In this document: positions 27,106 through 44,825 of the stretch, one piece after another
How the letters are laid out: each line of letters opens with the position of its first letter
Numbering within the stretch: the first letter of the stretch is position 1
From: Schmidtea nova
Taxonomy: Eukaryota
Length of the DNA stretch: 64,000 nt
NCBI GenBank assembly: GCA_044892505.1
Contig: JBJFYY010000020.1
Coordinates: 124,001-188,000 of the forward strand
Direction of reading: 5' to 3'
The notes under the pieces: generated by a model
What the model was told of the DNA's origin: nothing
The model's input: the letters and a program-made list of their open reading frames with translations, nothing else
Database searches by the model: none
Translations under genes and position numbers: made by a program

Positions 27106-27860
27106 AGTAGGTAGATGTGTGGAGCCGGGAACAAAGACATTATGACTCATGCGTGGGCGGAAAAAAAAGAACAAAGACCCCCTCCCCCCCGGGGGGGTAG
27201 AAATTTTTTTTGATGAGTCATCGATGAGTCATAGAAATTTTTTTTGATGAGTCATCGATGAGTCATCGATGAGTCATAAATTTTTTTTCAAAAATTTTTT
27301 TTTCGCGCCAAATTTTTTTTTCAAAAATTGTTTTCGCGCCAAATTTTTTTTTCAAAAATTTTTTTTCAGGCAAAATTTTTTTTTGAAAATTTTTTTTTTT
27401 ACAAATTTTTTAAGACAAATTTTTTAAGACGAATTTTTTTTTAACACAAATTATTTTTAGTCCAATTTTTTTATAAGACAAAATTAGAGTCATCAAAAAT
27501 ATTTACAACAGATGTGCAAACTAAACAAAGACATTTTTATATGTGTGCATGTTTAATTAATTATTATTTGTCAAGTATGAAGCTTTTGCACTTCAAAACC
27601 ATCACAGAAGAGGTTCTGCTTCCAGGGTTCTGATCGCAATGTTCTGCTTCCAGGGTTCTGATACTAATTGTTCTGCTACTAATGCTTTTTATTTAATTAT
27701 TATTATCTTTCAAACTAAACAAAGACTTTGCAACATGCGTGCAAGTTAACAAAGACATTGCAACACACGTGCAAGGACTTTGCAACACGCGTGCAACATG
27801 AACAAAGACATTAAAAAATCAAAATTTATTTATAAATATATCGTTGTGTACGTGTACAAA
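27106..27860 (+). repeat. Left TIR of the Polinton (about 755 bp)
   Basis: Reverse complement of about 43801-44825, apart from repeat copy number and a few substitutions. Confidence 0.92.
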
Positions 27861-28407
27861 ATTTAGTTTCAAAATTATTTACATCTGAATTATTACTCGG
27901 AATATTATTCATCGGAATATTATTCATTGTAATATTATTCATCGGAATACTAGTATTTGTCGGAATATTATTCTTTGGAATATTTGAAATCTTCTCCAGC
28001 CGTATGGATGCCGATAACATCATTATAATTATTAATATAAATAAACTTATATAATGTAATACAATTGCTGTTTTTTCGTTTTCAACTGTTTGATTTTGGT
28101 ATCTGACTTCATATTCTTTTTTAACAAATGTTTGATTGATACATTTTAATCTTTCAACTATTTTCATCATTATTTTGTTAATCATTTTTTCAATATCTTT
28201 ATTAATCACATTATTTTTGGAAGGACATTGATTACATTGTAATTTTATTTGATTGCATTCAATGTTTGAGTAAAGACATATATCGTTATAACTCGCGCAA
28301 GTACTATCTTGTTTTCGAAACGGATGGGATGATTGACAATCTTCCAAAGCTTGTTCTCCTTCAGTATTGTCAACACATAATAATAAAATAACTATAATTA
28401 ATTTCAT
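27826..28407 (-). CDS. Polinton accessory type I membrane protein (signal peptide, Cys-rich ectodomain, TM helix, Asn/Pro-rich tail)
   Basis: MKLIIVILLLCVDNTEG; six ectodomain Cys; hydrophobic AIVLHYISLFILIIIMMLSASI; tail of PMNNI repeats. The stop lies inside the TIR. Confidence 0.7.
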   Translation of the reverse strand: MKLIIVILLLCVDNTEGEQALEDCQSSHPFRKQDSTCASYNDICLYSNIECNQIKLQCNQCPSKNNVINKDIEKMINKIMMKIVERLKCINQTFVKKEYEVRYQNQTVENEKTAIVLHYISLFILIIIMMLSASIRLEKISNIPKNNIPTNTSIPMNNITMNNIPMNNIPSNNSDVNNFETKFCTRTQRYIYK

Positions 28408-28471
28408 TTTAAAAACAAAAACTAATATAAAAACTAAATTTGTTCATACTAAAATATTTATTAAAAAACAA

Positions 28472-28888
28472 TTATGCGTATCTTGCATTGTCAACTCTCC
28501 AAATCGGAGTAACAACATCTTTTTTATCAATCTTGTACCCTTGAATAATAACTGTAACGAACCAGTGTTCTTGATCCATGAAATCAATAGTCTGAAAAGC
28601 ATCATGAAACCGAGTTTTTCTGTTATTGATGTACATGGTTTCTTTACATGTCAAATTAACATTCATCTTTGAAAATAATCGATTTAATGCGATAATATCT
28701 TCATTGGCAATAATAACAGCAAGACTGTCATATAAAGATTTTGTTAATTTTACCGGATATGATAATCGATACGGTATTTCATTAACCAAAAAATAAAGTC
28801 GGCTGTCATAGTACATTTGAACTGGTTTTACCTCAGTCTGGTATATTTTTTCTTCGCTTATATCTAGATTTTGTTTTCGTGATTGCAT
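28472..28888 (-). CDS. Conserved Polinton accessory protein of unknown function (probable start MQSRKQNL)
   Basis: Part of ORF 28472..29005. A diverged homolog at 52742-53248 aligns from about this ATG. TGATTGG-N21-TATAAA lies upstream. Confidence 0.72.
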   Translation of the reverse strand: MQSRKQNLDISEEKIYQTEVKPVQMYYDSRLYFLVNEIPYRLSYPVKLTKSLYDSLAVIIANEDIIALNRLFSKMNVNLTCKETMYINNRKTRFHDAFQTIDFMDQEHWFVTVIIQGYKIDKKDVVTPIWRVDNARYA

Positions 28889-29400
28889 GTTGTAAATAGT
28901 GACAATATTTTTTAAAATGTCTTTGTATTTATACTGATGACTGGATGTCTTTGTCCAATCATATTCATGCATTTGTTTTGCACACACTATGCACATGTAT
29001 TGCAATGTCTTTGTTTTATGCGTGCATGTTTAAGTAATTAGTATGTGTTTAGTATGAAGCTTTTGCATATCAAAACCATCACAGAATAGGTTATTCTCAT
29101 AATGTCTGGTTACTAATGTTGTTATTTATTTAATTATTTATTTTATAATACTACTACTTTCTTTCTGAAAAGTATTTAATGAAAAAAAAAAGTTTTTAAC
29201 TTTTATATACAGTTAATAAAAAACTACTACTTTAATGTTTTAATAAAAAACTATTAATATTTAAATAAAATCAATAAAAAAACTTTTATTTAACTAAAAT
29301 GAAAAAGAAAACTAAAATGAATAATAAAACTTTTATTCAACTAATATAACAAAAATGATACAACAAATTACAACAACAACAGCAACAACAACAACAACAT

Positions 29401-30066
29401 TCACATGTCAGATGGTTCGCCACCAAGAGATTGGCAACCATAATCACTATTATTATTATTATCACCATCACAATCTTCTGCCTTTCGATGGCATTGTATA
29501 CAATCCGGTGATTGTGGCGACTCCATACAATCAGATGATGATGATTGAACCGGTTCAGGTGAAAATGGACCATCTAGATTTGGTGCTTCCAAATCTGTTG
29601 TTGTTGTTGTTTCATCATCTGTCGGCTCCGGAGTAGAGTTGGGCCAGGTTTCCTTGACTTGTTCATCCTCCTCCTTTTCCTCATCGATTTTGTCCATTTG
29701 TTGGACATCATAGAGTTTGAGGGAATTCCTCAAAACCCAGATATTAAACTGCCGGATTCTTTCCACGCAGCTCCCGCATTGATAAGCGCACATAATGTGC
29801 TCGGGTACCATTGGGATATCTGTATTCTGGCTCGTCATGTGATCGAGCACAATCTGATTGATATCTATTCCCGTCAAGACCATTATCTTGTACGGGAACA
29901 TCTCCGGAGCCGTGTAGACCAGAGCCGGCATCAGGTTCGGGAATAGCTCCTCCAATTTGCGATAGATAACGTTCATTAATTTATCTGAAATAATAATAAT
30001 ATAAAATATGAAAAATAAATAATTAAAATCCTTACGGCTTTTTATTAGTGTTTGGGTCATCGACAT
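29401..30066 (-). CDS. Polinton accessory protein (Cys/His cluster plus acidic S/T/P-rich tail); probable 51-nt intron at 29985-30035
   Basis: 221-codon ORF. GTAAGG...TTTCAG removes an AT-rich hydrophobic in-frame stretch, giving MSMTQTLIKSHKLMNVIYRK. Confidence 0.65.
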   Translation of the reverse strand: MSMTQTLIKSRKDFNYLFFIFYIIIISDKLMNVIYRKLEELFPNLMPALVYTAPEMFPYKIMVLTGIDINQIVLDHMTSQNTDIPMVPEHIMCAYQCGSCVERIRQFNIWVLRNSLKLYDVQQMDKIDEEKEEDEQVKETWPNSTPEPTDDETTTTTDLEAPNLDGPFSPEPVQSSSSDCMESPQSPDCIQCHRKAEDCDGDNNNNSDYGCQSLGGEPSDM

Positions 30067-30247
30067 AATTGTGAATATAAACTATGTGAGATTGTTCATA
30101 GTATATATATATATATCAAAGAAACACACATGATTTGAAACACACATAATGAACCAATCAGAGTGAAGCATGAACAACATGTCTTTATTCTAACGATACA
30201 CACAGAGCCAATCAGAATCGTGCATTTCTAATGCATCGATATTGCAG

Positions 30248-30715
30248 TCATGAGTCACATGTTAGTATGAAATCAACAAAGGCTTTATCTTCTATAATTG
30301 ATTTTATATCGTAAATAATATCATCAACTATAGTACTATAGTCTTTGTTTTTTAATCCTAATATGACTAATTTCCCACTTGCAAATATATTTACACACAT
30401 GGGATTATATTTGATATATCTCAAAGCTGGAAATAATTCTGGCTCGTAAACACACGGTATTAATTTCGATAATTCATTCAAATTACAAATGAATCCTAAA
30501 TCCGCAGTTACAGTTATCGATTGTATCTTTAAATCGTAAAACTCAACTTGTTCGTCACTAATAAATTCCCTGCATCCCATTATTCTATATCTTCCTGATT
30601 TAAAGTATATTATTGGGTATTTTCCACTTCGATTTACAATTTGCTGGGGTTTTCCTTTTGGAAATTTCATGTGTGATACATCTGTCTTACCCTTGTAATT
30701 AATGTTTCTAATCAT
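30248..30715 (-). CDS. TATA-binding-protein (TBP)-like protein encoded by the Polinton
   Basis: LKIQSITVTADLGF...VYEPELFPALRY...VNIFASGKLVILGLK matches TBP repeat 2 (FKIQNMVGSCDVKF...SYEPELFPGLIY...LLIFVSGKVVLTGAK). IIYFKSGRYRIMGCR matches the end of repeat 1. Confidence 0.85.
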   Translation of the reverse strand: MIRNINYKGKTDVSHMKFPKGKPQQIVNRSGKYPIIYFKSGRYRIMGCREFISDEQVEFYDLKIQSITVTADLGFICNLNELSKLIPCVYEPELFPALRYIKYNPMCVNIFASGKLVILGLKNKDYSTIVDDIIYDIKSIIEDKAFVDFILTCDS

Positions 30716-30808
30716 TACTGGAAATATTTTGAAATGAAATAATTACTTTGAGAACAGGTATTTAAAACAAATATAAACAATAATATTAAGAAAATATAAT
30801 TTTTAAAT

Positions 30809-31432
30809 ATGGAATTAAGAAATGATGCAGTGTTTCAAATTGTTGGTCCGAGCGGGAGTGGAAAAACTTTATTTGTTTGTAAATTATTGCAATCGAAATT
30901 ATTCAAGTCAAAATTTAATAATATTTATTGGCATAGGGGTGCTGACGACGAAAGTGGAATGACACAAGATCAATTTTGTAAAATAAAAATGACAATCATT
31001 AAAGGTTTCGATAAAAACTGGTCATCTAGATTAAAACATGGTGATGTGATTATCATTGACGACTTGTATCAAGAAGCAAATAAAGAAAAGGATTTCAATA
31101 ACTTATTTACGAAAATCAGTAGACATAAAGGTGTTACTGTTATTTTTATAACTCAGAATTTATTTCATCAGGGCGGTAGTCATCGAACTCGTAATTTAAA
31201 TGTTCAATATCTTGTTGTTTTTAAAAATCCTAGAGATGCAACAGTTATTGATTTTCTGGCAAGACAAGCTTATCCTTCTAATCGTAACTTTTTGATTGAA
31301 GCCTTTCAAGATGCTACAAAATCTCCTCATGGATATATTTTCCTTGATTTTACTCAACAATGCAGTGATCATTTACGCGTTAGAACTGATATTTTTAACC
31401 CTGAAGGAGCCATGGTTTATAAACAAAGTTAA
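30809..31432 (+). CDS. FtsK-HerA/A32-like DNA packaging ATPase
   Basis: Walker A GPSGSGKT, Walker B IIIDD, SRHKGVTVIFITQ, RTRNLNVQYLVVFKNPRD. Confidence 0.95.
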   Translation: MELRNDAVFQIVGPSGSGKTLFVCKLLQSKLFKSKFNNIYWHRGADDESGMTQDQFCKIKMTIIKGFDKNWSSRLKHGDVIIIDDLYQEANKEKDFNNLFTKISRHKGVTVIFITQNLFHQGGSHRTRNLNVQYLVVFKNPRDATVIDFLARQAYPSNRNFLIEAFQDATKSPHGYIFLDFTQQCSDHLRVRTDIFNPEGAMVYKQS

Positions 31433-31452
31433 TTCTGTTTGCAATCGTAATC

Positions 31453-31962
31453 ATGTTAATGAAATCTCGAGTAAAGTTTGAGCCATTGATAAAGGCTAGA
31501 ACAAAGAAAGCGGGAAAGAAAACAAAGAAACTATTTACAAAGAAATCTATAAAGAAATCAAGAAAGAAATCCAAGAAAATACTTATGGATAATATTCCCA
31601 AAAATAATTTGAAATCTAATGCTAAACAAGCACATCATCGGAGTTTACCGTTTTTTAATGCATTACTTAAAGCCCCTTCCGTTAGAAGAATGGGTATTCT
31701 TCAATCGTTTCCTAGTTACGTCATCGATGATTTACTCTCTATTTTAATTAAAGTCGTGCGATGTAAAATGAATCTAACTCCATCTAATCGCCGTGTTTTG
31801 AACAAGCATAAAAAACCATTGTTGTCGCTAGTAAACTCAAAAAATAAAAAACTTATGCGCAAAGTAATATATAAACAACAAGGTGGTTTTATCGCAGCAT
31901 TGTTACCATTAGCATTATCTTTATTGGGAGGTGCTGGTTTATTGGGAAAAAGAAAGTCATAA
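31453..31962 (+). CDS. Basic Polinton core/virion protein with an adenain-type cleavage motif
   Basis: Lys-rich, with a C-terminal QQGG|FIAALLPLALSLLG typical of Polinton conserved small proteins. Confidence 0.75.
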   Translation: MLMKSRVKFEPLIKARTKKAGKKTKKLFTKKSIKKSRKKSKKILMDNIPKNNLKSNAKQAHHRSLPFFNALLKAPSVRRMGILQSFPSYVIDDLLSILIKVVRCKMNLTPSNRRVLNKHKKPLLSLVNSKNKKLMRKVIYKQQGGFIAALLPLALSLLGGAGLLGKRKS

Positions 31963-32017
31963 ACAATGGGTCAATCATTACCTAATTTAAATTTAAACTT
32001 TAAATCTTCTTGTTGCA

Positions 32018-33067
32018 ATGGAGAAGATCTGGACGAACCCAAAAGACGACGCCGGTTTCGGTGGAGTCGAAAAGCTAAGGAAAAAAGCACAGAAGTCGAA
32101 ACAACAGACACAAAGTTGGTTATCGGGGCAACTTGCATACAGTCTAAACAAACCGATGTTGAAACGGTTTCCAACTCGAGCATATAAAACATATAGAATC
32201 AATGATTTGTGGCAAATGGACTTGATGGAAATGATTCCGTATTCCAAAATTAACAAGGGGTACAAGTATATTTTAACATGTATTGATGTTTACAGTAGAT
32301 TTTCTCGAGCAATTGGAGTCAAATCAAAATCTGCTAATGACATGGCAATCGCTATCAAGACAATGATGAAAAAGGATCGGCCAACTAATTTACAAACTGA
32401 TTTGGGTAAATTTTAATTTAAATTTATAAATTTAATATTTTTTTTTTTAGGAAAGGAATTTTACAACAGTAAAGTCAAGGAAGTTATCAAGGGAATAAAT
32501 CATTATTCGGTATTCTCACAATTCAAAGCCGCTCATGTCGAGAGATTTAATCGAACTTTGCGTGATCGATTGAAAAAATACTTTGTTTTTAAAGGCAATA
32601 AAACCTGGATTAATGTCTTACCTCAATTGATTCATAGTTATAATCATAGTGCTCATCGGGGTATAAATGGTAGGAAACCGGCAGAAGTAGTTGATACTGA
32701 AAATATTGTGAGTGAAGTGAAAGTAAAGAAACCAAAATATAAAGTTGATGATCATGTTCGAATTAGCAAGATTAGTACATCGCCATTCGTTAAAAATTTT
32801 GATAATAATTGGAGTGATGAGGTATATCAAATATCGAAAGTCAACACAGTGCAGAATCCTGTCATGTATACTATTCGTGACTCTGATAACAATATAATCA
32901 GCGGCAAATTCTACGAACAAGAATTACAAGTTATTCCTAAACCTACGATATTTAGAATTCAAAAGATTTTGAAGACTAAAATGGTGGGTAAGGATAAACA
33001 ATACTATGTCAAATGGCATGGATATAAAGAACCATCATGGATCTCGTCAAAAAATCTAGTAAAGTGA
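32018..33067 (+). CDS. Retroviral-like (c-)integrase with C-terminal chromodomain; join(32018..32405,32451..33067)
   Basis: WQMDL (D), spliced QTDLG|KEFYN (D), VERFNRTL (E); chromodomain YYVKWHGY...SWI. The 45-nt GT-AG intron restores the frame. Confidence 0.95.
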
Positions 33068-34080
33068 ATTTTTACACTATTTTACCGAGCAATAGTTGTC
33101 CGAATATACATCCGGATAATACCGCAAGTAAATTCATGGTGAATTTACCTAATCCAATTTATTTAAACGGAAATTGGGAAGTTGCTCTAATGGATTTTAC
33201 ATTTGTTTACCAACCTTTTCCATATTATAGTTATTGTAAAATTTATTACTATAAAAAGAAAACAATTGTTGCAAATGCGTTTTTCTCGATATATAATAAT
33301 AATGGCCATCTGAATGTTCCAACTCACACAATCGATCCGGATATCGAATTGTGGCAACGAGGTGGAAGAATATTTCTCACGTGTAATATTGTTCCGTATA
33401 CAATTACATTTAATGATCTTGAGATAGCAAAACGAATGGGAAGTAATAAACTGACAATAACATGTAATCAAGAAGAATGTGAATTCAAAGTTATGCAAAA
33501 CTTGGCCAGTAATGATGAAGAAATAATTACTTTTACTATATCGTATGATCGTGAAGAAGGACATGTATTCACATTCAAGGAGGAGTTGTATATAACGCAT
33601 CTAGATGAATTACAGAAATATATTAGTGATAATTGTTCGGATATTTTTACAGTTGTCGAATTAAATAAATTGTTCAAATTCAAACTCAAAGAAAAAATCA
33701 CTAAAGTCAGATTTGATAAATACTTGGTCAATACATTGGGATTAGATAAGGATACATTTACCGATAAAAATGTCATTTCTGGTGTTCGTCAACCGAAAAT
33801 ATCTAAACTTCATCAGCAATTATTCGTGTATACAAACATTATCGAACCCATTATTGTTGGTGATTCCTTGGTTCCTTTACTAAAATCGGTATGGATTGAA
33901 AAATACGAGCCAGATGAAATTGTTCAAATAGTAATGGATAATCCAATGTATTTATCTGTTTCAACATCCTGTATAAACAATATAGAAATAAATATCCGGG
34001 ATGACAGCGGAAGATTTATAAAATTTCCAAAAGATTCAAAAACTCACTTAACTCTACATTTTCGAAAAAACGATGAGTAA
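33037..34080 (+). CDS. Minor capsid protein (penton, single jelly-roll)
   Basis: FYTILPSNS...NTASKF.V.LP.PI.L.GNWEVAL; LFVYTNIIEP.IVGD..VPLL; NPMY...I.NIEINIRD..G. Confidence 0.88.
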   Translation: MDLVKKSSKVNFYTILPSNSCPNIHPDNTASKFMVNLPNPIYLNGNWEVALMDFTFVYQPFPYYSYCKIYYYKKKTIVANAFFSIYNNNGHLNVPTHTIDPDIELWQRGGRIFLTCNIVPYTITFNDLEIAKRMGSNKLTITCNQEECEFKVMQNLASNDEEIITFTISYDREEGHVFTFKEELYITHLDELQKYISDNCSDIFTVVELNKLFKFKLKEKITKVRFDKYLVNTLGLDKDTFTDKNVISGVRQPKISKLHQQLFVYTNIIEPIIVGDSLVPLLKSVWIEKYEPDEIVQIVMDNPMYLSVSTSCINNIEINIRDDSGRFIKFPKDSKTHLTLHFRKNDE

Positions 34081-34456
34081 TCCCGATATAGTTTCAATGT
34101 ACAGTGATAGCCAGACTGGTGGTGAATTACCGTATTTTGTCGGTAAACAGTATGGATCAGGTTGGTTAAAAACTATTGGGAGATTTGCACTTCCAATTCT
34201 TAGACGACTAGGTAATTTCGGAATGAATACCGCTAAGGACGTTATCATGAAAGATAATAAAATATTACCGTCATTGAAAACCAATGCTTTGGCCGCAGTT
34301 AATAAAGCTATACCTGCTGTAACTCAAATGCTTCCTACAATTACAAGTATGTTTACAAAAAATAAGGAACCGGAATCTGTACCGGTAGGACCAAGACGTA
34401 AACGAAAACGTATAAACAAACGAATGAAAGGTCATGGAACTATATTTGAAGAATGA
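34073..34456 (+). CDS. Polinton conserved small virion protein (amphipathic, adenain-site containing)
   Basis: QTGGELPYFVG.QYGSGWLKTIGRFALPILRRLG motif; basic C-terminus. Confidence 0.78.
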   Translation: MSNPDIVSMYSDSQTGGELPYFVGKQYGSGWLKTIGRFALPILRRLGNFGMNTAKDVIMKDNKILPSLKTNALAAVNKAIPAVTQMLPTITSMFTKNKEPESVPVGPRRKRKRINKRMKGHGTIFEE

Positions 34457-35673
34457 TTTGCGGTAAATCTGAATTATGTCTTTTTGATCGACCATCACCT
34501 CAAGCAGTTATTGAATATGGGGCGTTTGAAGATGTGTTTCCAATGAATTCAATTACAGATAGTAGAAATGATGTTGAATTTTACATTAATGGTTCTCAAA
34601 CCGAATATTTGGATTTGAACGATACATTATTGTCCGTTACAATTAAAGTTGTAGATAAAGATAAAAAAGCTCTAGCCGATGCGAGTGATGTAGTTCCTAA
34701 TAATTACCTGTTTCATACACTTTTCAAAGATGTAATTCTCGGATTTAATAATATAAAAATCGAGGGTGGAAACAATACATATGCGCACAAGGCAATAATC
34801 GAAACTATTTTAAATTATACGAATGATGCGAAAGAAACATGTCTTACTCCAATGGGATATGGTTCAGCTGACGATCGGAAAAAATGGATCAAGGGATCTA
34901 AACTTTTCAACATGTGTTCGTCATTACAACTGGATTTTATGGATCAACCTAAATACTTACTTCCCGGAGTTAATGTACATATTAGATTGAAGCGATCTGA
35001 TTCTGCATTATCATTGAAATCGGTAGGTGGGAAACCTGTTATCCAAATAGTTGATGCAAAATTAATGGTAAGAAGAGTTCGATGTGAATCTTCAGTATTG
35101 GCCGGTCATCAAATTGGTTTAAATAAAAAACATGCAATTTATCCTCTCAAATCAAAAGAAATCGTATCGTTTGCTATCGGTAAAGGAGCATCGTCATTTT
35201 ACAAGGAGAAAATATTTGGGGATAGACGAATGCCTAATTTCATTCTTGTGGCTTTTCAATCCGAAAATCAATATAACGGATCTTATACCGAGTCAACATC
35301 TACATTCAAACACTTTAATGTGACTTCATTAACATTGTCGAAAAATACCGATTATCGTGAAACATATACCCAGGATTTTGAAAATGATAATTTTAGTGCA
35401 TCATATATGCAAAGTCTTGTCCGAAATCTAGGTTATTTGGATAAAAACTTGAATTGTGGTATTGGTCTAGATGAATTTAAATCTAGTTATCCATTCTTTA
35501 CATTTGTTCTGGCTCCCGATTTTGATTTGAATCAAAGCCAAATCCCTCAAAACGGAAATTTACGACTGGATATAAAGTTTGCAAAACCTATTGATGAACC
35601 GGTTCATGTAGTTATTTATGGAGTTTTTGAAAATGAAGTTCAAATTACTGCCAATAGAACAATACTGGTTTGA
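34453..35673 (+). CDS. Major capsid protein (double jelly-roll, PY)
   Basis: KSELCLF...VEFYING...YLDLNDTLL; LDFMDQPKYLLPGV; GNLRLDIKFAKP. Intact 406 aa. Confidence 0.93.
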   Translation: MICGKSELCLFDRPSPQAVIEYGAFEDVFPMNSITDSRNDVEFYINGSQTEYLDLNDTLLSVTIKVVDKDKKALADASDVVPNNYLFHTLFKDVILGFNNIKIEGGNNTYAHKAIIETILNYTNDAKETCLTPMGYGSADDRKKWIKGSKLFNMCSSLQLDFMDQPKYLLPGVNVHIRLKRSDSALSLKSVGGKPVIQIVDAKLMVRRVRCESSVLAGHQIGLNKKHAIYPLKSKEIVSFAIGKGASSFYKEKIFGDRRMPNFILVAFQSENQYNGSYTESTSTFKHFNVTSLTLSKNTDYRETYTQDFENDNFSASYMQSLVRNLGYLDKNLNCGIGLDEFKSSYPFFTFVLAPDFDLNQSQIPQNGNLRLDIKFAKPIDEPVHVVIYGVFENEVQITANRTILV

Positions 35674-35742
35674 GCTTAAACATTACTAGTTTAAGTTCAA
35701 ACAGTATAAATGATCAAAGTTATTATTTTTATTATTCTTATT

Positions 35743-36121
35743 ATGGAGTAAGATTTTTAATTGATTAGTTATTTATTTTTTAAATAGTTCTTTTCAGGTA
35801 TTACAACAAGGTAAAAAACTATTGGGAAATCAATTTATTGGAGTATTTCCTCTGGATAAAATACCTTATTTGAAAATGAATCAAGCCATCATTGTAAATA
35901 CTCAGACATCTACATTGGGCGGTGAACATTGGATTGCAGTTTATGTGAAACCAGATCGAATACATGTATTTGATCCATTTGGATATTATTATCCGAATTT
36001 ACTTGTTCGAAAACTACAAACTATCGGTAAACCTATTGTGTATAATAGAATTCGGTATCAGCATCCCTTAACAATCACTTGTGGTGAACATTGCCTTGCA
36101 TGGTTGAAATCAATGTTATAA
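35743..36121 (+). CDS. Adenain-like cysteine maturation protease; join(35743..35747,35788..36121)
   Basis: A 40-nt GTAAGA...AAATAG intron gives MDSFQVLQQGKKLLGNQFIGVFPLD. Catalytic GEHW, FDPFG and Q....TCG. Confidence 0.9.
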
Positions 36122-36153
36122 ACAATTTATTTTAATAAACTTTATTTGAAAAA

Positions 36154-36555
36154 ATGTCTTGTTATTTTATCGATTTTTATGGATATAATGAAATGGGTGG
36201 AACAACAATTAAGGAATTATGTATTATGAATGTTAATAATATTTTCACACCTCAGTATTATATATACAGTGATTTATCTTTATGGCCTGATCGTATAGAA
36301 TCGTTTGAAGGACAAGATTATTTTTGCCCAAAATGTATAATGGATGATATCACGGATAAAGGAGCTATTTTCTATGTAACAGATCATGAAAAGATGCATG
36401 TTTTGAAGAAGTATTTCCCCAAATTACGATTAATTAAATATAATTATAAAGAAGTTGAATATGTTCCTGAAAACATTTCATGTCCCTATAAAGATCATTG
36501 CATGTGTGCCTATAAAGGGTGCTTGTCTGCTGTTGTCGATTATTTAAAGCAATAA
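36154..36555 (+). CDS. Polinton-associated small protein (IDxxG...IKEL N-terminus, Cys/His C-terminus; possibly a DEDD/RNase H-like fold)
   Basis: YFIDFYGY...IKELCI...; IFYV...EK..VL; CPYKDHCMCAYK. Fold assignment is from memory of similar proteins and unverified. Confidence 0.55.
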   Translation: MSCYFIDFYGYNEMGGTTIKELCIMNVNNIFTPQYYIYSDLSLWPDRIESFEGQDYFCPKCIMDDITDKGAIFYVTDHEKMHVLKKYFPKLRLIKYNYKEVEYVPENISCPYKDHCMCAYKGCLSAVVDYLKQ

Positions 36556-36915
36556 ATGTATTTTATTATTTTTTATTATTTTTATTAATTATTATTTTAA
36601 TTAATTATTATTTTTATTATTATTAATTATAAATATTATTATTTTCATCACAAAGGCATGACCAGTGCGTGATCAATGCGTGATAAGCACATGTCATGTC
36701 TTTGTCACGATACAAAGCAATATCGTGACGTCAAACACACATAAACAAAGGTATATTATGTGTGCAGTATGTGTGCATGTATTTGTCTATCCTATCTCGA
36801 TTCTGATTGGTCGGTTAATAAATTTCACCTTTATATAGTATATACTTGAATTATTTCGTCACTTTTTACTCACAAATTTTTATAATCAATTTCAAATTAT
36901 TTTAAAGAAGAAAAT

Positions 36916-38955
36916 ATGCAAAATTTAAATCTAATTATGCCACGAAGAATCGCCGGAGGTCTAAAAAGTAAAATTATTAATTTTTATTTTATTATATTTA
37001 TATTATGTTATTTCTAGGTGTTAATTTAGCTAATAATATGTCAGGATTTTTGATAAACGGACTCAGAAATCAAAATAACTTAATTGGTAAAAATTTATAC
37101 TATTTTATTTTGTTTATTATTAAACTTTTAGGTAATAATTTCCAAAACGTAGATATAGATGCCTCTCTTATTGATGATGATGTACCGATTATTGATGTCC
37201 CGATTATTGATGTTCCGAACTATACTGATGTCCCGAACTATATTAATGGACAGAGTTTTAAAAACTCTAAAAAATGTAATTTTTATATTAGTATTTTATA
37301 TGATGATAATGTAATTATATGATTTTTTTTTTTTAAAAAATTTAATTACTATCTTTTAAATAAATTATTAATATTATCAATGATGATGGTACTTTTTTAT
37401 AATGAAGAAGATGAATTTTTGTTATTTTAATGAAGAAATTTAATGAAGAATTTTAATGAAAAAGAATGAATTTTTGATGTTTATTAATGAAGAACAAGAT
37501 GATATTTTAAAGACGAAATAATTTTTATTAAGAAGATGAATCTTTTGATATTTTATGAAATAAAGAATAATTTTTTTTATATTTTAATGGTATTTTAATG
37601 ATGAATTTTAATGAAGAAGATAGTATTTTGATATTTTAGGATATTTTTATGAAATAATTAATTTATTGATATTTTAATGATGAATTTTAATGATGAATTT
37701 TAATGAAGAATTATAATGAAGAATCTAATATTTTAATGATGAAAATGAATCTTTTGATATTTTAAAGATATTTTTTATGAAAAAGATTAAGTTATTTTAA
37801 TGCTATTTTATTAATATCTTATAATGGAATAATTATGTTTTTTTTTATGTATAGATATAAAAAACGTTGATTATTATAATATATTTTTTTTTATGCATAG
37901 ATATAAAAAATTATATTTAATATAATATGTAAATGTTTTTAAACAATTACCTATTATTTTAAATATAAATAATTGTTCAAAGAAAAAAAATAAATAAATA
38001 AAAGTTATTATTATCAAAAAATATTATTGTTTAAAATATTTATTAAATAATAAGTTAAATTATATATTTTATTTTAATGTGATTATTTTTTAATTGTAGC
38101 CTTTGATTTAATTTTTTTTCATCATATTCAGGCTCAATATATCAAAATCTTTGCAATAATACTTTCCATAGTGACTGTCATGTCATTATGGAAAAGTATT
38201 ATTCATATAAATATAATGGTGTCACCCACCTCCTCTGCCCAAAATGTAAAATTATAGAAGTTAAACCTTATAAGGAATTTTATCTTTCACATAGGTTACA
38301 TCTTTCGCAATACCAACCTTCTAAAAAATCACTTTTTAATTCTTTATATAAAAATTATATTACTAATAACAATCTTAATAATAATAATAATAACAACATT
38401 AATAATAATAATACAAATAATAGAAATATTTTACAAAATAATAATTTACAAAATAATACAATTACAAATAATTTACAAAATACAAATAATTTACAAAATA
38501 CAAATCATTTACAAAATACAAATACAAATAATTTACAAAATACAAATAATATTAATACAAATAATTTACAAAATACTAATAATCAAATTAATAATCTAAA
38601 TAAAATCAATACACCTAATTTAAATAAACGTAAAAATACAACATTAATGGATTCAGTTCCTAAAAAACTGATCATAATCGACATCAGCGATGATGAAGAT
38701 NNNNNNNNNNNNNNNNNNNNNNNNNNNNNNNNNNNNNNNNNNNNNNNNNNNNNNNNNNNNNNNNNNNNNNNNNNNNNNNNNNNNNNNNNNNNNNNNNNNN
38801 NNNNNNNNNNNNNNNNNNNNNNNNNNNNNNNNNNNNNNNNTGATGAGGATGATCTTATTTATAATAAAAGTAGTAATATCAATATTATATCTGACATAAT
38901 CGTCAATGATGATGAATTTGACGATTATGTTAATATTATAAATAATAATAATTAA
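36916..38955 (+). CDS. Predicted multi-exon Polinton gene: join(36916..36967,37018..37086,37132..37275,38132..38955)
   Basis: Three phase-1 GT-AG introns (50, 45 and 856 nt) give an open frame with DVPII/DVPNY repeats, C..C.FH..C...CPKC, an Asn-rich linker and IIIDISDDED. It spans an N gap, so the frame beyond 38700 is uncertain. Confidence 0.5.
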
Positions 38956-38961
38956 ATTGGA

Positions 38962-41900
38962 ATGGGTATTGTTGAAGTTACTTCCGACTTGAACGATACC
39001 CATTTTATTATAAAAATGGATGTTTCTAACTTATTATTAAAAACGGTCTCTGTGCCGGATATATTATTAGAGAAACTAAACTCATATATAATTAAATTAA
39101 AATCAGTTAAAATTCAATTTTGTCTCAAGGTAGAATTTGAGAAAGATGATCAATTACAATCTTTTGTCATCTCAAATTCTGCCAGAGAGTGGAGTGATAC
39201 ATTTATTGAGGAAGGTATCACTAATTTAAATGAGAAGATTGTCCAGATTAACGAAAAGGGGAGTAATTGGACAATCTCCAAAATCGAATATATTAGTTTT
39301 TTAGTCACTAAATTTTCAGAAATTAGTCGATTGAGCGGCAGCAGTTATATCGAAACGCCGAATACTTTAAGAAATTTAAGTTGCCTTGTTAATGTCCAAA
39401 ATAACGACACCTATTGCTTTTTATATAGCTTTTTAGCAGTAGTTAAATACGATAGTATTGAACGCCAATACAGACATAGGACTACTTCTTATGATCTTTC
39501 CCAAATTGTTTTTGACCCCAACGACATGCCCATGAAATTAGTTAACATAAAGAAATTTGAGAGACAAAACAGTGGCTATAGTATAAATGTCCTGACATAT
39601 GACGAAAAGGCCCAAATAGATGTAAGCGAAAAAGACAATGATGATAATGTCGTCCTTAAACACCCCTTTATAGATATAGTCTACCGTAGTAAAGTAGTCG
39701 GGGCTATTCCCATAAATTTGCTTCTTTTGGAGAAAAAAGATAATTTTCATTATCTTGCGATTACCGACCTGAATCGCTTTTTGAATTGTAGAAATAGTGC
39801 CATCACCCCAGTTAGGATTTGCAGTCAATGGTGCCCTCGTTGCTTGAATGGGTTTAGGAACGACGAAGCCTTTAATCGTCATAAGGGTCTTTGTACCAAA
39901 AATCAGTTGGGTACTACACTGTACACCTTACCAAAAAATAAATTTTTAGAGTTTACTGATTGGAAGAAAACAGTAACTCCTCCTTTCGTAATATATGCAG
40001 ATTTCGAGGCAATATTACCTAAAGATACTGTTCACCACCAAAAACATCTTCCTATTGCTGCAGGTCTACTTCTCATTAACAACTTTACTGGGGTGAGAAT
40101 ATACAAATCTTTTGTAGGGCTAGACTGTGTTGATCAATTCTTAAGAGAAATTGAGTCAATCAGTCGGTATATAGTAACACCTTATTATTATAAAAATTAT
40201 CAAAAACGCATGACTATTACTGCGACCCAACAGCGACAATTTGATAATAGCACTAATTGCTATTTATGCAAAAAACTTTTAGTGGCACCGGTTAGGGATC
40301 ACGACCATTTCACCGGTCTTTATATTGGAGCAGCCTGCTCAGAGTGTAACAAGTCCCGGCAAATACGACACTCTTTGCCCGTAATTTTTCATAACTTGAA
40401 GGGTTACGATTTGCACCATATTTTAAAATATGGTCTTTCCAAATATAACAGTTGGAATATTAGTTGTATACCCTTGACCAGCGAAAAGTTTTTAAGTCTT
40501 TTCGCGTACATCGATAGCCTGACCGTAAAATTTATTGACTCTTATCAGTTTGTAAGTGAGTCTCTAAATAATGCAGTAAAAACACTTACTAGCTTACCTT
40601 TAACAAACTCTGAATTTCGAGGCACTATAGTCACTGCCAAGGGCATTTTTCCATACGACGCTGCCACTTCTTTAGAAGTTTTAAAATCAACCTTGTGTTT
40701 ACCCCCCAAATGGAAAGATATAACTGCTGTCGAGTATGCTGCTGCCCATAAAATCTGGCAAGAAACATCATGTACATCACTGTACGATTACATGATGGTT
40801 TATTTGAAATTGGACGTTTTTTTATTAGCCGATTATTTCCAACAATTTCGGGTAAAATCTATTAACCATAACAGGCTTGAGCCTTTAAATTTTCTCGGAA
40901 TTCCCGGCATGTCGTGGAGTTCCGCTTTATTAACACTTGACTCTCCTATCGAGCTCCTCACCGATATGGAGATGTATAACTTTTTCGAGGGCGGTATTCG
41001 CGGCGGACTAACGTTTGTCAATAAACATTATGTCAAGACGAGCCCGGATACCGCATTACTATATATTGACATTAATAATTTATATGGGTGGGCCTTAAGC
41101 CAACCCCTGCCTTGTGGTAATTTTGAGTGGGTCACTGATGACCAATTATTAAATAACATCGTTTGTGAGTGCACATCGGAAAATCTCGATACACTTCATT
41201 ATGGTTACACCATAGAAGTGGATTTGGAAATTCCGGCATCGATTCACGACAAACTGGATGATCTTCCAGTTGCCGCTGAAAAGATGTGTGCACCGGGATC
41301 CAAGGTTGAGAAGCTGTTGCTAACGCATCTTCCAAAGAAGAATTATGTTCTTCATTGGCGGCTTCTGCAACTATTTATTAAAATTGGTGTGAAGGTAACG
41401 CACATACATCGCGCTATTAAATTTTCGCAAAATAAAATATTTTATAATTATATTAATATCAACACCAGTTTACGAGCTGCATCTACAAATAAACTAGACA
41501 AAAATTTCTACAAATTATTAAATAATAGTCTATACGGGAAAACCGTAGAGAATTTAAAAAAAAGAATTAATTTAAGACTGTGTAACTCGGCACAAAAACT
41601 GCTGACTTACACGTCAAAAGCTAATTTTAAAAAAACTACTAAAATAGACAATGACCTCATCTCTGTATTGCTTCAGAAGGAATCAGTATGTTTGGATAGA
41701 CCCAGCTACATTGGACAAACCGTACTGGATTTATCCAAACTTCGTATGTACCAGCTGCAGTATGAAGAGTTACAAAAATATCGTAACGACTTCAACTGCG
41801 AAATTAACATCGTTGCTGGGGATACTGATTCCTTCTTCTTGGAAATCAAACATCTTGACCTTAACACTCTTTTGACCGCCATGATTCGAGATAGGCTTTT

Positions 41901-42408
41901 GGATACCTCTAATTACGACACTCGTCATACATTGTATAGTAGGTCCCTTGATTCTGTGATTGGCAAATTTAAGGATGAGAATAAGGGTCTACTGTATGAT
42001 GAGTGGGTTTTCTTAAGACCTAAGTGCTATAGTCTTATGGGAGACGAGGCCTGCATGAAAGCGAAGGGGATCTGTTTAAAAGATGCAGGTCTCACACACC
42101 AGTCTTACCTTGACTGTTTTTTAAACGATAAGATATATAATGTCCCCCAGTTCCGCACTACGAGCAAAAATCACCAGCTCTTTAGTATAAAAAGCAATAA
42201 GAGAGCCTTATCTTGTAGGGACGATAAGAGGAACTGGGTGGAAAAAAATAAAAGTTTGGCGTATGGCCACTATATGGGGGGTGACACCAATATATTTATA
42301 GGTGATGATGGATCAGAACAGCAGCATCTTCAACAACAACAACAACAAGGTCCGTCTGATGACCCTTATGATTTCTACGATCCGACTGCTAGGGACTACT
42401 TCGGATGA
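38962..42408 (+). CDS. Protein-primed family B DNA polymerase (pPolB)
   Basis: Exo I YADFE, Exo II FHNLKGYD, Exo III YLKLDV; pol YIDINNLYG, KLLNNSLYGK, GDTDS; EndoVII-like Zn insert CYLC...DHDHFTG...AC..CN; N-terminal ND..CF and HY residues. 1148 codons with no stop. Confidence 0.97.
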   Translation: MGIVEVTSDLNDTHFIIKMDVSNLLLKTVSVPDILLEKLNSYIIKLKSVKIQFCLKVEFEKDDQLQSFVISNSAREWSDTFIEEGITNLNEKIVQINEKGSNWTISKIEYISFLVTKFSEISRLSGSSYIETPNTLRNLSCLVNVQNNDTYCFLYSFLAVVKYDSIERQYRHRTTSYDLSQIVFDPNDMPMKLVNIKKFERQNSGYSINVLTYDEKAQIDVSEKDNDDNVVLKHPFIDIVYRSKVVGAIPINLLLLEKKDNFHYLAITDLNRFLNCRNSAITPVRICSQWCPRCLNGFRNDEAFNRHKGLCTKNQLGTTLYTLPKNKFLEFTDWKKTVTPPFVIYADFEAILPKDTVHHQKHLPIAAGLLLINNFTGVRIYKSFVGLDCVDQFLREIESISRYIVTPYYYKNYQKRMTITATQQRQFDNSTNCYLCKKLLVAPVRDHDHFTGLYIGAACSECNKSRQIRHSLPVIFHNLKGYDLHHILKYGLSKYNSWNISCIPLTSEKFLSLFAYIDSLTVKFIDSYQFVSESLNNAVKTLTSLPLTNSEFRGTIVTAKGIFPYDAATSLEVLKSTLCLPPKWKDITAVEYAAAHKIWQETSCTSLYDYMMVYLKLDVFLLADYFQQFRVKSINHNRLEPLNFLGIPGMSWSSALLTLDSPIELLTDMEMYNFFEGGIRGGLTFVNKHYVKTSPDTALLYIDINNLYGWALSQPLPCGNFEWVTDDQLLNNIVCECTSENLDTLHYGYTIEVDLEIPASIHDKLDDLPVAAEKMCAPGSKVEKLLLTHLPKKNYVLHWRLLQLFIKIGVKVTHIHRAIKFSQNKIFYNYININTSLRAASTNKLDKNFYKLLNNSLYGKTVENLKKRINLRLCNSAQKLLTYTSKANFKKTTKIDNDLISVLLQKESVCLDRPSYIGQTVLDLSKLRMYQLQYEELQKYRNDFNCEINIVAGDTDSFFLEIKHLDLNTLLTAMIRDRLLDTSNYDTRHTLYSRSLDSVIGKFKDENKGLLYDEWVFLRPKCYSLMGDEACMKAKGICLKDAGLTHQSYLDCFLNDKIYNVPQFRTTSKNHQLFSIKSNKRALSCRDDKRNWVEKNKSLAYGHYMGGDTNIFIGDDGSEQQHLQQQQQQGPSDDPYDFYDPTARDYFG

Positions 42409-42990
42409 TGTCAATACTGATGACGATGGCAAGGACGAGAATAATAAATTGAAAAAAAAAAATCAAAAGAAAAATAATTCAAAAACCAAAAAAAAAAAAA
42501 AAAAAAGAAAATAACCAAAAAGATATGAGAATGTACAATCGGCCCTCTTCAGGGCCACAATTTATGATTGTATAACAAATAATAAAAAAAAATTTAGATA
42601 ACCGAAAACAGAAACGAAATAATGAAAACAGAACCCAAATAAAAAAAATAATTAAATAAATAAAAGATTAAGAAAACCGAAAAGAAACCAATAATGAAAA
42701 TTAACAGAAAATGAAAGGAAACAAATGATGAAAAGAAAAAATATTGTGCACGAAATAATGGTCCTCTTTAGGGCCTTCAAATTATGATTGTAATATAAAT
42801 TGCGCAATCAATTAAAACTACGGATTTATTAGTTATTTTTTTTATGTATCATTTATTTGTATAAGTTATTAATATTTTTTATAATTTTTTTTATAAGTGA
42901 TTAATATTTTTTTATAAGTTTTTATAAGTTATTATCTTTACTTTTTTTTATAAGTTATTTTAATAAGTTATTATTATTAAAAGTTTACAA

Positions 42991-42991
<1 letters not shown>

Positions 42992-43082
<91 letters not shown>

Positions 43083-43115
43083 AAGTATTTATAATTATTA
43101 TTATTAATATTACAA

Positions 43116-43180
<65 letters not shown>

Positions 43181-43196
43181 AAGTATTTATAATTAT
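42992..43196. repeat. (ATT)n microsatellite running into a gap
   Basis: Long pure ATT tracts interrupted by ACAAGT units. Confidence 0.95.
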
Positions 43197-43800
43197 NNNN
43201 NNNNNNNNNNNNNNNNNNNNNNNNNNNNNNNNNNNNNNNNNNNNNNNNNNNNNNNNNNNNNNNNNNNNNNNNNNNNNNNNNNNNNNNNNNNNNNNNNNNN
43301 NNNNNNNNNNNNNNNNNNNNNNNNNNNNNNNNNNNNNNNNNNNNNNNNNNNNNNNNNNNNNNNNNNNNNNNNNNNNNNNNNNNNNNNNNNNNNNNNNNNN
43401 NNNNNNNNNNNNNNNNNNNNNNNNNNNNNNNNNNNNNNNNNNNNNNNNNNNNNNNNNNNNNNNNNNNNNNNNNNNNNNNNNNNATTACANNNNNNNNNNN
43501 NNNNNNNNNNNNNNNNNNNNNNNNNNNNNNNNNNNNNNNNNNNNNNNNNNNNNNNNNNNNNNNNNNNNNNNNNNNNNNNNNNNNNNNNNNNNNNNNNNNN
43601 NNNNNNNNNNNNNNNNNNNNNNNNNNNNNNNNNNNNNNNNNNNNNNNNNNNNNNNNNNNNNNNNNNNNNNNNNNNNNNNNNNNNNNNNNNNNNNNNNNNN
43701 NNNNNNNNAATTATAGTTATTATTACGAGTATTTATTATTATCATTATTATTAATATAATAATTATTATTAATATTATTATTTTGATTATTACTATTATT

Positions 43801-44825
43801 AATTTGTACACGTACACAACGATATATTTATAAATAAATTTTGGCTTTTTAATGTCTTTGTTTATGTTGCACATGTGTTGCACGCATGTGTCTTTGTTTA
43901 GTTTGCATGTGTATTGCAATGTCTTTGTTCATGTTGCACGCGTGTTGCAAAGTCCTTGCACGTGTGTTGCAATGTCTTTGTTAACTTGCACGCATGTTGC
44001 AAAGTCTTTGTTTAGTTTGAAAGATAATAATAATAATAATAATAATTAAATAAAAAGCATTAGTAGCAGAACATTTAGTATCAGAACCCTGGAAGCAGAA
44101 CATTGCGATCAGAACCCTGGAAGCAGAACCTCTTCTGTGATGGTTTTGAAGTGCAAAAGCTTCATACTTGACAAATAATAATTAATTAAACATGCACACA
44201 TATAAAAATGTCTTTGTTTAGTTTGCACACCTGTTGTAAATATTTTTGATGACTCTAATTTTGTCTTATAAAAAAATTAGACTAAAAATAATTTGTGTTA
44301 AAAAAAAATTCGTCTTAAAAAATTTGTCTTAAAAAATTTGTAAAAAAAAAATTTTCAAAAAAAAATTTTGTCTGAAAAAAAATTTTTGAAAAAAAATTTG
44401 GCGCGAAAAAAAATTTTTGAAAAAAAAATTTGGCGGGAAAAAAAAAATTTTTGAAAAAAAAAATTTGGCGCGAAAAAAATTTTTGAAAAAAAAATTTGGC
44501 GCGAAAAAAATTTTTGAAAACAAAAATTTGGCGCGAAAACAATTTTTGAATAAAAAAAAATTTGGCGCGAAAAAATTTTTGAAAAAAAAAATTTGGCGCG
44601 AAAACAATTTTTGAAAAAAAAAATTGGCGCGAAAAAAAAATTTTTGAAAAAAAATTTATGACTCATCGATGACTCATCAAAAAAAAATTTATGACTCATC
44701 GATGACTCATCGATGACTCATCAAAAAAAATTCTACCCCCGGGGGGAGGGGGGTCTTTGTTCTTTTTTTTCCGCCCACGCATGAGTCATAATGTCTTTGT
44801 TCCCGGCTCCACACATCTACCTACT
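43801..44825 (-). repeat. Right TIR of the Polinton (about 1025 bp) with an expanded internal tandem repeat
   Basis: Inverted copy of the left TIR with 8 TTGGCGCGAAA-type units versus 2 on the left. Confidence 0.92.

Follow-up and report, generated by a model that had tools for sequence, protein, structure and literature searches.

The TATA-binding protein (TBP) of cells and archaea is a beta-saddle built from two repeats, each of which canonically carries two helices. Its N-lobe faces the 3' half of the TATA box, and the H2 surface of that lobe is the contact surface for TFIIA, TAF1, Brf1 and Mot1. For the canonical element TATAWAWR the protein presents a symmetric pair of Asn residues and a hydrophobic minor-groove face. 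An acidic stirrup in its C-terminal half contacts TFIIB; canonical TBP bends the promoter DNA to which it binds and nucleates a Pol II pre-initiation complex. A crystallographic study of a TATAAAC box reportedly gave a Hoogsteen result. Virus-encoded proteins with the TBP fold are found in giant viruses (Nucleocytoviricota) and mirusviruses, which are large and many of which carry their own RNA polymerase. According to the available part of PMC1935006, the second Phe pair of canonical TBP inserts between positions 7 and 8 of the box, and the EPD-derived consensus YWTAWADN does not allow C at position 7; the available part of PMC12236790 served as a source of TBP background only. The TBP mimics of beta- and gamma-herpesviruses (KSHV ORF24, EBV BcRF1 and HCMV UL87) are described, in the accessible sections of PMC6541308, as working some 30 bp before late starts, at a modified TATT box, as binding Pol II directly and as acting in a six-protein vPIC.

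Polintons, or Mavericks, and the adintoviruses are characterized by terminal inverted repeats (TIRs), a 6-bp target duplication, a protein-primed DNA polymerase B (pPolB), an RVE integrase, an A32 ATPase, an adenain and capsid genes. The list of eight core genes given for vertebrate Mavericks in the part of PMC8097293 that was available does not include TBP, in agreement with the preliminary description of the present locus, which had placed TBP outside the canonical core set. For PLVs and polintoviruses, VLTF3 is the transcription factor that is usually mentioned, as far as the excerpted Polinton/PLV literature goes.

The window, that is, the whole stretch of 64,000 nucleotides analysed here, contains a complete Polinton/Maverick of 17,720 bp (27106..44825). 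It lies between copies of the 6-bp target duplication TACCGA (27100-27105 and 44826-44831) and has the termini AGTAGG...CCTACT. Both TIRs are imperfect; the left one (27106..27860, plus strand) holds arrays of ATGACTCAT, TTTCGCGCCAAA and AACAAAG words, and the right one occupies 43803..44825 on the minus strand. With its TIRs, 6-bp duplication, pPolB, rve integrase, A32 ATPase, protease and capsid genes the element is a Polinton; of the core-gene calls, rve, Pox_A32 and Peptidase_C5 were made by Pfam, the major capsid protein by a weak DJR match and the minor capsid protein by position.

The morphogenesis and integrase module is on the plus strand. It begins with the A32-like packaging ATPase (30809..31432; Pox_A32 E 6.8e-7), followed by orf31453 (31453..31962), a basic conserved frame of 169 aa whose composition and position make it a candidate core protein, and by a retroviral-type integrase with a C-terminal chromodomain (32018..33067; rve E 4.8e-8, Chromo E 1.2e-5). 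The integrase frame is split by a putative short GT-AG intron near 32406-32451, and the split recurs in other copies. Next come the putative minor capsid protein (33037..34080), assigned by position and conservation and without a Pfam match, orf34073 (34073..34456), a conserved frame of 127 aa in the virion module, and the putative major capsid protein (34453..35673), which is conserved in relatives and has a weak DJR-like match, PF21738, at E 0.007, under the cut-off. The C-terminal part of an adenain-like protease (35876..36121; Peptidase_C5 E 8.1e-6), the true start of which is probably further upstream, and orf36154 (36154..36555), conserved and 133 aa long, complete the module. The pPolB region with an endonuclease VII-like insert (38188..42408, plus strand) is broken into two frames near 38955 in this copy; in other copies of the same genome the pPolB family matches PF03175, and those examined are 57-66% identical to that of the window.

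The minus strand encodes the 155-aa product (30248..30715), hereafter vTBP, in which the preliminary description had recognized a minimal, Polinton-encoded TBP. The frame yields 155 aa from ATG to stop and 164 aa from stop to stop. The ATPase gene diverges from it across an intergenic region of 93 bp (30716..30808), and a longer N-lobe has no room because the ATPase begins 93 nt away. This head-to-head layout is repeated in all 80 copies picked from the same genome by their ATPase. On the 3' side of the vTBP gene and on the same strand lie orf29401 and orf28472 (28472..30066), both putative early genes; residues 31-130 of orf29401 found no match in the ESM Atlas.

That description had noted the motifs RNI (residues 3-5), YFKSG (37-41), YEPELFP (90-96) and NIFASG (109-114) and an SGK signature (SGKLVILG), all of which are present. 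The Pfam TBP family PF00352 matches residues 62-133 with an E-value of 9.5e-14 (51.4 bits, cut-off 22.9), and a PDB sequence search gave 35 matches (best E 8.5e-18), each of them a TBP or a construct that contains one. Hhalign pairs vTBP with TBP at a probability of 99.1 over both lobes, and the ESM Atlas returned TBP clusters only. The AlphaFold2 model, built on our alignment A1, has a mean pLDDT of 92. It gave 44 Foldseek matches in the PDB at E<=0.001, every one listed to rank 44 being a TBP-containing chain, and a VIA alignment superimposes it on TBP over 143 residues (1-143) with a Z-score of 12.2 and an rmsd of 3.0 A; the closest non-TBP has a Z-score of 6.1. By profile and fold vTBP is a member of the TBP family, predicted to form the two-repeat antiparallel beta-saddle, which it shares over 143 residues with cellular and archaeal TBPs (PF00352; 5fur_A, 7o4i_O, 1mp9_B, 2z8u; Z 12.0-12.2).

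The two lobes differ. In the model the C-lobe (residues 61-153) is complete, with helices 79-85 and 127-153. The N-lobe (residues 1-60) keeps its beta-strands (2-10, 25-28, 35-38 and 42-48) and has lost both helices, no helix of four residues or more being predicted anywhere in residues 1-60, so that the canonical pair of helices in each repeat is absent. Cellular-type TBPs have an H1 span of 48 residues and an H2 span of 34-35; in vTBP these spans measure 35 and 19, and the family medians are 40 and 23. The N-lobe is about 13 residues shorter than that of cellular and archaeal TBPs in the H1 span and 15 in the H2 span. The near-complete repeat 2 of the preliminary description and its lost N-lobe surface are both borne out. 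Its shortened repeat 1 stands as far as RNI and YFKSG are concerned; the repeat is, however, more than shortened, as both helices and the fourth intercalating Phe are missing.

The residues on the DNA face were counted in 181 family proteins aligned with five cellular-type TBPs, after four cellular-type matches had been removed; positions follow yeast TBP numbering, with the C-lobe offsets checked against the range of 1rm1_A. Three of the four intercalating Phe are kept: F38 (F116) in 155/156, F95 (F190) in 176/177 and F111 (F207) in 174/174. The equivalent of F99 is K22 or P23, depending on the register, and in neither alignment register is it Phe. Also kept are N69 (132/142) and P191 (152/177). 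Other base-facing positions carry non-canonical residues that are fixed across the family: V122 is replaced by Arg (R44, 156/157), T124 by Met (M46, 173/173), N159 by Ser or Thr (176/177), V161 by Thr or Ser (174/177) and L205 by Asn (N109, 173/174); further family swaps are I194 to Arg (138/177) and V71 to Asn (110/142). The symmetric Asn pair and hydrophobic minor-groove face suited to TATAWAWR are thus not retained, N69 being kept and N159 being Ser or Thr. The resemblance to cellular and archaeal TBPs, which extends to the YEPELFP stirrup and the equivalents of F116, F190, F207 and N69, stops at F99 and at these family-wide replacements (N159, V122, T124, V161, L205 and I194), and overall identity is about 25%. 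Judged from these alignments, the DNA face of vTBP is remodelled and probably re-specified rather than kept canonical, and the earlier claim that TATA contacts are kept is not supported. The claim that the TFIIB stirrup is kept holds at the level of residues: E91 (E186) is found in 161/177, E93 (E188) in 174/177 and Leu or Ile at position 94 in 170/177, and the putative acidic C-terminal stirrup for TFIIB is present. The core of the host TFIIB is split by introns.

The genome of origin (1.25 Gb) contains at least 150 copies of the vTBP gene at 98-100% identity, and 149 of the 150 scored have no internal stop; the 19,089 first-look candidates of this search are not copy numbers. Other vTBP subfamilies of the same genome are 86% and 63-65% identical. 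Where loci were picked through the ATPase, the TBP gene adjoins it in 30/30, 30/30 and 20/20. Two ATPase-picked sets of 30 gave pN/pS values of 0.131 (406 pairs) and 0.198 (435 pairs), the pairs being non-independent, and dN/dS against the two other subfamilies is 0.15 and 0.18. A first dN/dS set (L001-L030) had been chosen by TBP identity, is biased and was set aside as evidence. By these values and layouts the vTBP gene is intact, evolves under purifying selection and is linked to Polinton cores, and a recent, neutral capture confined to one copy, which the preliminary description had considered, is excluded.

Outside this genome, 40 of 56 matches in a protein search fall into a compact family with 37-73% identity in alignment A1, and a profile search among 50%-identity representatives found 58 proteins at E<=1e-30. 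Among metagenome loci (the best 80 of 135), 39 carry a Polinton core gene and 55 any element gene; among the 23 that are at least 4 kb long the figures are 20 and 22. All of these loci were chosen through TBP, and the families examined in the genome of origin all carry it. As to a location within Polintons, a TBP gene adjoins the ATPase in 80/80 ATPase-picked copies, and a core gene accompanies it in 20/23 of the longer metagenome loci. The pPolBs of the metagenome loci are 33-52% and their capsid proteins 26-58% identical to those of the window, and the position of TBP in the gene order varies, which indicates that these elements have retained TBP while diverging over a long time and rearranging their genes. 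Plasmid sequences searched with the ATPase gave no match, and IMG/VR yielded no relatives when scanned with the TBP, the ATPase or the capsid protein; the pPolB scan of IMG/VR found one distant PLV, on two contigs. A phage collection yielded only three weak haloarchaeal-virus TBP records, and a GTDB scan almost only Methanobrevibacter-type TBPs, which were taken as the outgroup. When a TBP-less Polinton family was sought in the genome of origin through PF03175, the same pPolB family was found in the five regions examined; some PF03175 regions have a pPolB without other core genes.

The host has its own intron-bearing TBP, one paralogue and two divergent TBP-like genes. In a tree of 52 rows, none of which was dropped, all 31 Polinton-type rows (8 of them without genomic context) lie on one side of a branch with support 100/99, apart from host TBP. 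On the other side are the host's four TBP-like genes together with further cellular-type (10), archaeal (3) and IMG/VR (4) rows, and no IMG/VR row joins the Polinton branch. The tree has a midpoint root and was built without divergent giant-virus TBPs.

A second conserved feature of these elements is a short box, YATAAACR, before the genes for morphogenesis and integration. In the window the form (T/C/G)ATAAACA precedes seven of the eight plus-strand module genes. A copy of TATAAACA at 30772..30779, a putative late promoter, has its ATAAAC core 36 nt before the ATG of the ATPase; a second (31418..31425) is 34 nt before orf31453, within the end of the ATPase coding sequence. The integrase has CATAAACA (31958..31965) 59 nt before its ATG, and the minor capsid gene has GATAAACA (32993..33000) at 43 nt, within the coding end of the integrase. 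Three more copies of TATAAACA, likewise on the plus strand, are placed 100 nt before orf34073 (33972..33979, within the minor capsid coding sequence), 41 nt before the ATG of the major capsid gene (34411..34418, within orf34073) and 36 nt before orf36154 (36117..36124). The window copy has no YATAAACR before the protease, TBP, orf29401, orf28472, orf27826 or pPolB.

Across the metagenome loci, the window and the locus L118, with near-duplicates removed, start codons assigned automatically and related elements non-independent, 69 of the module's 84 distinct upstream regions have ATAAAC between -110 and -20, against a background of 6.1%. It precedes the ATPase in 22/22, the major capsid gene in 9/9, orf34073 in 5/5, the minor capsid gene and orf36154 in 8/10 each, the integrase in 10/15, orf31453 in 4/6 and the protease in 3/7. 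The absence of the protease box from the window copy and from 4/7 distinct upstream regions speaks against the late-promoter reading of the box. On the opposite strand ATAAAC is found before module genes in 2/84, and before TBP, pPolB, orf28472 and orf29401 in 5/61. The base on its 5' side (n=68) is T in 44, C in 20, G in 3 and A in 1, and that on its 3' side (n=68) A in 55, G in 11 and T in 2. The distance to the ATG, counted from 24 nt for the 69 boxes, is never 24-29 nt and is 30-49 nt in 42, a TATA-like spacing. No initiator consensus stands out 3' of the box.

The box is retained among elements whose ATPases are 28-94% identical to that of the window, and it persists within upstream coding sequences in different reading frames; only 50 of the 298 Ile-Asn codon pairs in these loci read ATAAAC. 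By itself ATAAACAA is hardly more frequent in the window than expected (19 occurrences for 12.4 expected, with 5 of 100 shuffles reaching 19); the signal of the box lies in its position and strand. In L320, a distant PLV without TBP (18,367 of 21,601 bases covered), the box is absent before the ATPase and integrase, which, in one distant element, is weakly consistent with a pairing of vTBP and box. Four sequencing runs (from one study, their kind not on record) covered genes and spacers alike and, among the rows listed, gave no joint across the integrase intron; they are therefore uninformative on expression.

The promoters of the TBP genes are of another kind. TATAWAWR precedes 20 of 53 TBP genes, against a background of 3.7%, and 4 of 22 ATPase genes. 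In 16 of 21 TATA-bearing TBP-gene regions TCA(T/C) follows 28-30 nt 3' of the TATA, so by their motifs the TBP genes of relatives often have an ordinary TATA plus initiator, an apparent host-type promoter. A canonical TATAWAWR is missing before the TBP gene of the window itself, as it is in 33/53 relatives. TGTTT(T)A, nearly the reverse of the box, is found before 17/53 TBP genes, against a background of 5.8%.

Because its base-facing residues are fixed in a non-canonical state and the structural genes stand behind YATAAACR, not TATAWAWR, vTBP is likely to have its own DNA specificity. The box deviates at position 7, where the N-lobe of vTBP has lost a Phe and gained Arg, Met and Asn. We hold with moderate confidence that vTBP is a late-gene promoter factor that acts at YATAAACR in an early-to-late switch, the link between the two being a correlation joined to a structural fit. 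The TBP gene would be an early gene, transcribed by host TFIID. Its product would bind YATAAACR in the orientation usual for TBP, with the remodelled N-lobe placed to read the C of position 7, which is non-canonical, and the stirrup would dock TFIIB and thereby the host RNA polymerase II. Loss of helix H2 from the N-lobe would free vTBP from the partners of that surface, and the outcome would be an early-to-late switch inside an 18-kb element. The putative GT-AG intron of the integrase fits with nuclear Pol II transcription.

Alternatively, the reader of the box might belong to the host, as its TBP, a TBP paralogue or a Forkhead protein, and vTBP might act separately as a decoy that takes TFIIB or other general factors from host genes. 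The acidic TFIIB stirrup, among the best-kept parts of vTBP, is what such a decoy would use, and host TBP might read TATAAACA, because wild-type TBP has been crystallized on a C(-25) TATA variant (PDB 1qn3, from its title). The host's own TBP, its intron-bearing paralogue and its two divergent TBP-like genes could provide other specificities. The word ATAAACA matches the Forkhead consensus. A decoy, however, does not need new DNA-face residues fixed throughout its family (R44 156/157, M46 173/173, N109 173/174), and a host reader is at odds with a box that is kept among elements with ATPases differing by up to 70%. The fixed strand and a distance to the ATG of no less than about 30 nt are core-promoter-like, whereas an enhancer-type Forkhead site need not have them. 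We consider this explanation unlikely, with some weight left to it.

In another, improbable reading the late genes use host machinery, and vTBP either represses its own or other early promoters or bends the ends of the element in protein-primed replication or integration. Proteins of the TBP fold bend DNA sharply, which would suit an architectural role, and the TGTTT(T)A word before 17/53 TBP genes could be an autoregulatory site. The boxes, however, stand at gene starts, and both TIRs together hold a single ATAAAC (43865); the TFIIB stirrup, moreover, would have no use in replication.

It is very improbable that the box is a variant poly(A) signal (TATAAA, CATAAA or GATAAA) of the upstream gene, to which vTBP would be unrelated. 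A same-strand frame does end within 300 nt upstream in 18/22 ATPase loci, and several boxes are near the ends of upstream genes. Yet the box is also present where no same-strand gene lies upstream (4/4 loci, the head-to-head window copy and 20/20 copies of the same genome), A precedes ATAAAC in only 1/68, so that AATAAA is avoided, and the C that follows is fixed. Where a box precedes the next start by 41 or 100 nt, it sits within the upstream coding sequence, and cleavage there would shorten the product. The notion that vTBP is a decaying, passively carried fragment of host TBP, suggested by its short length and missing canonical residues, is hardly credible and is refuted by pN/pS of 0.13-0.20, by 149/150 scored copies without an internal stop, by 58 proteins at E<=1e-30 and by the branch (100/99) that separates the Polinton-type rows from the host's four TBP-like genes.

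As a late-gene promoter factor, vTBP would resemble the herpesvirus mimics: both are TBP-like proteins encoded by a virus, with a modified TATA box ahead of structural genes as the proposed target. It differs from them in standing alone with 155 aa, in keeping the TFIIB stirrup and in its box, YATAAACR versus their TATTWAA; vPIC partners were not found. A large Pol II-binding domain is absent, all residues of vTBP being accounted for by the TBP fold as a single domain, and the structural match to BcRF1 is weak (Foldseek E 0.022). By analogy vTBP is likely to work like the herpesvirus mimics without being a member of them. With the TBPs of giant viruses and mirusviruses it shares the virus-encoded TBP fold; unlike them, it belongs to an 18-kb integrating element without polymerase subunits. 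Its best match in BFVD is a Heterosigma akashiwo virus TBP (E 1.4e-7, 18% identity), and in Foldseek cellular TBPs are closer to it than viral TBPs.

Late transcription driven by a viral TBP is known, and for Polintons it has apparently gone undescribed beyond one figure label. That label, 'TBP', appears for non-animal MELD viruses in figure legends only of the part of Starrett et al. 2021 that was available (PMC8502044; preprint 10.1101/697771); one supplement text had no match for it. Full-text literature searches, with figures, Repbase and most subscription papers outside their scope, found no description of the vTBP family or the box, nor did the available main texts of the Polinton/PLV papers 10.64898/2026.06.19.733378, 10.64898/2026.10.13.758929, PMC12220804, PMC11161782, 10.1101/2023.08.22.554363, PMC11131425 and PMC8097293. 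The finding was first put forward as possibly unreported, and apart from this one legend label that is mostly so.

By sequence, the conserved, element-encoded minimal TBP is real, and its cognate late promoter is a candidate. No Maverick virions had been observed as of PMC8097293, in the part of that paper available. A conserved factor-promoter pair bears on the timing of capsid and integration genes in Polintons, and the pair of YATAAACR and vTBP offers a concrete and inexpensive test of an autonomous early/late cycle. It also suggests a rule for annotating late genes in such elements, a YATAAACR at least 30 nt before the ATG. A natural minimal TBP that has dropped its N-lobe helices and apparently rewired its contacts with the 3' half of the TATA box may help to show which surfaces of TBP are required for Pol II initiation. 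Given at least 150 intact and near-identical copies in one genome, their expression, if any, could also affect host promoters that carry the same word. The chances seem to us evenly balanced that a large and old Polinton lineage runs its temporal transcription with one TBP of 150 aa, pared down to the beta-saddle and the TFIIB stirrup, re-specified for YATAAACR and free of control by TFIID, TFIIA and Mot1. If true, vTBP and its box would make up one of the smallest orthogonal TBP-promoter pairs that serve host Pol II, and they would be evidence, at the level of sequence, for an autonomous early/late virus cycle of these 'transposons' for which no helper virus is needed.

The putative early gene orf28472 (28472-28996, minus strand), which lies downstream of the Polinton's gene for a TATA-binding protein (TBP), has relatives that adjoin TBP in 20 of 80 metagenome loci. 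A Pfam search with its product returned nothing above the cut-off, and the C-terminal pattern may resemble that of viral OB-fold ssDNA-binding proteins. A second conserved frame, orf36154 (36154-36555, plus strand; 133 aa), had no match in Pfam. Its acidic N-terminal pattern may resemble that of DEDD exonucleases, and the late box, the putative late promoter word YATAAACR, is found upstream of the gene in 8 of 10 relatives.

Putative short GT-AG introns are present in the element's integrase gene (32406-32451), where the split is also seen in other copies of the Schmidtea nova genome, and in the protease gene (about 35750-35798). The polymerase region (38188-42408), in which residues 417-465 form an endonuclease VII-like insert, is comprised of two ORFs in the window copy, whereas other copies in the genome have a single frame of 1,243-1,322 aa. 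In contrast to this element with its putative introns, vertebrate Mavericks are reported to be intron-free (PMC8097293).

A second word, TGTTT(T)A, precedes 17 of 53 TBP genes, compared with a background of 5.8%. In 14 of the 53 it lies about 43-64 nt ahead of the start of a gene that has no canonical TATA. The upstream regions bearing it include those of loci L033, L060, L064, L078, L084 and L118. One possibility is that the word acts as an alternative early promoter, another that it is a site of autoregulation.

The host TBP family is itself expanded (loci L111-L116, on sequences C1 and C2 of the genome) and consists of the canonical TBP, an intron-bearing paralogue, which occurs at two positions close to each other, and two divergent TBP-like genes that form a pair in the tree. 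The host TFIIB and Brf1-like genes appear to be duplicated as well.

Three further features of the window lie beyond the ends of the Polinton: a 56-bp tandem array (8319-9624), a 1.8-kb element (17602-19447) that has transposase-like ORFs and whose inverted arms measure 106 nt, and an LTR retrotransposon-like element with a gag-pol-like ORF between identical 100-nt direct repeats (47741-51637).

The Polinton expansion across the genome is very large, each of the two ATPase subtypes searched giving at least 150 near-identical matches. Nested and fold-back pieces occupy two regions of C1, 127070001-127110000 and 464678001-464718000 (loci L299-L302 and L307-L310). They include large inverted duplications in which the protein-primed polymerase pPolB is present and other core genes are absent, and are possibly non-autonomous derivatives.

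The terminal inverted repeats (TIRs) carry repeated short words. Arrays of ATGACTCAT, presumably an AP-1/bZIP-like word, lie at 27142-27277 and 44658-44789; 12 of its 14 matches in the window fall within the TIRs (0.94 expected), and TGACTCA is found again in L083, L045, L093 and L303. AACAAAG, which we take to be a Sox/TCF-like word, is repeated in the TIRs (27130-27801 and 43856-44795) and occurs at 29009. A second copy of a 95-nt TIR segment (29003-29097) lies immediately upstream of orf28472. TTTCGCGCC was found in none of 12 other loci checked, although not every one of these extends into a TIR. Eight tandem copies of TTTCGCGCCAAA, against 0.01 expected, are distributed over both TIRs (27301-27343 and 44397-44603) and presumably match the DHFR promoter's overlapping E2F site. 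Through these TTTCGCGCCAAA words, activation of the element could be tied to cycling cells.
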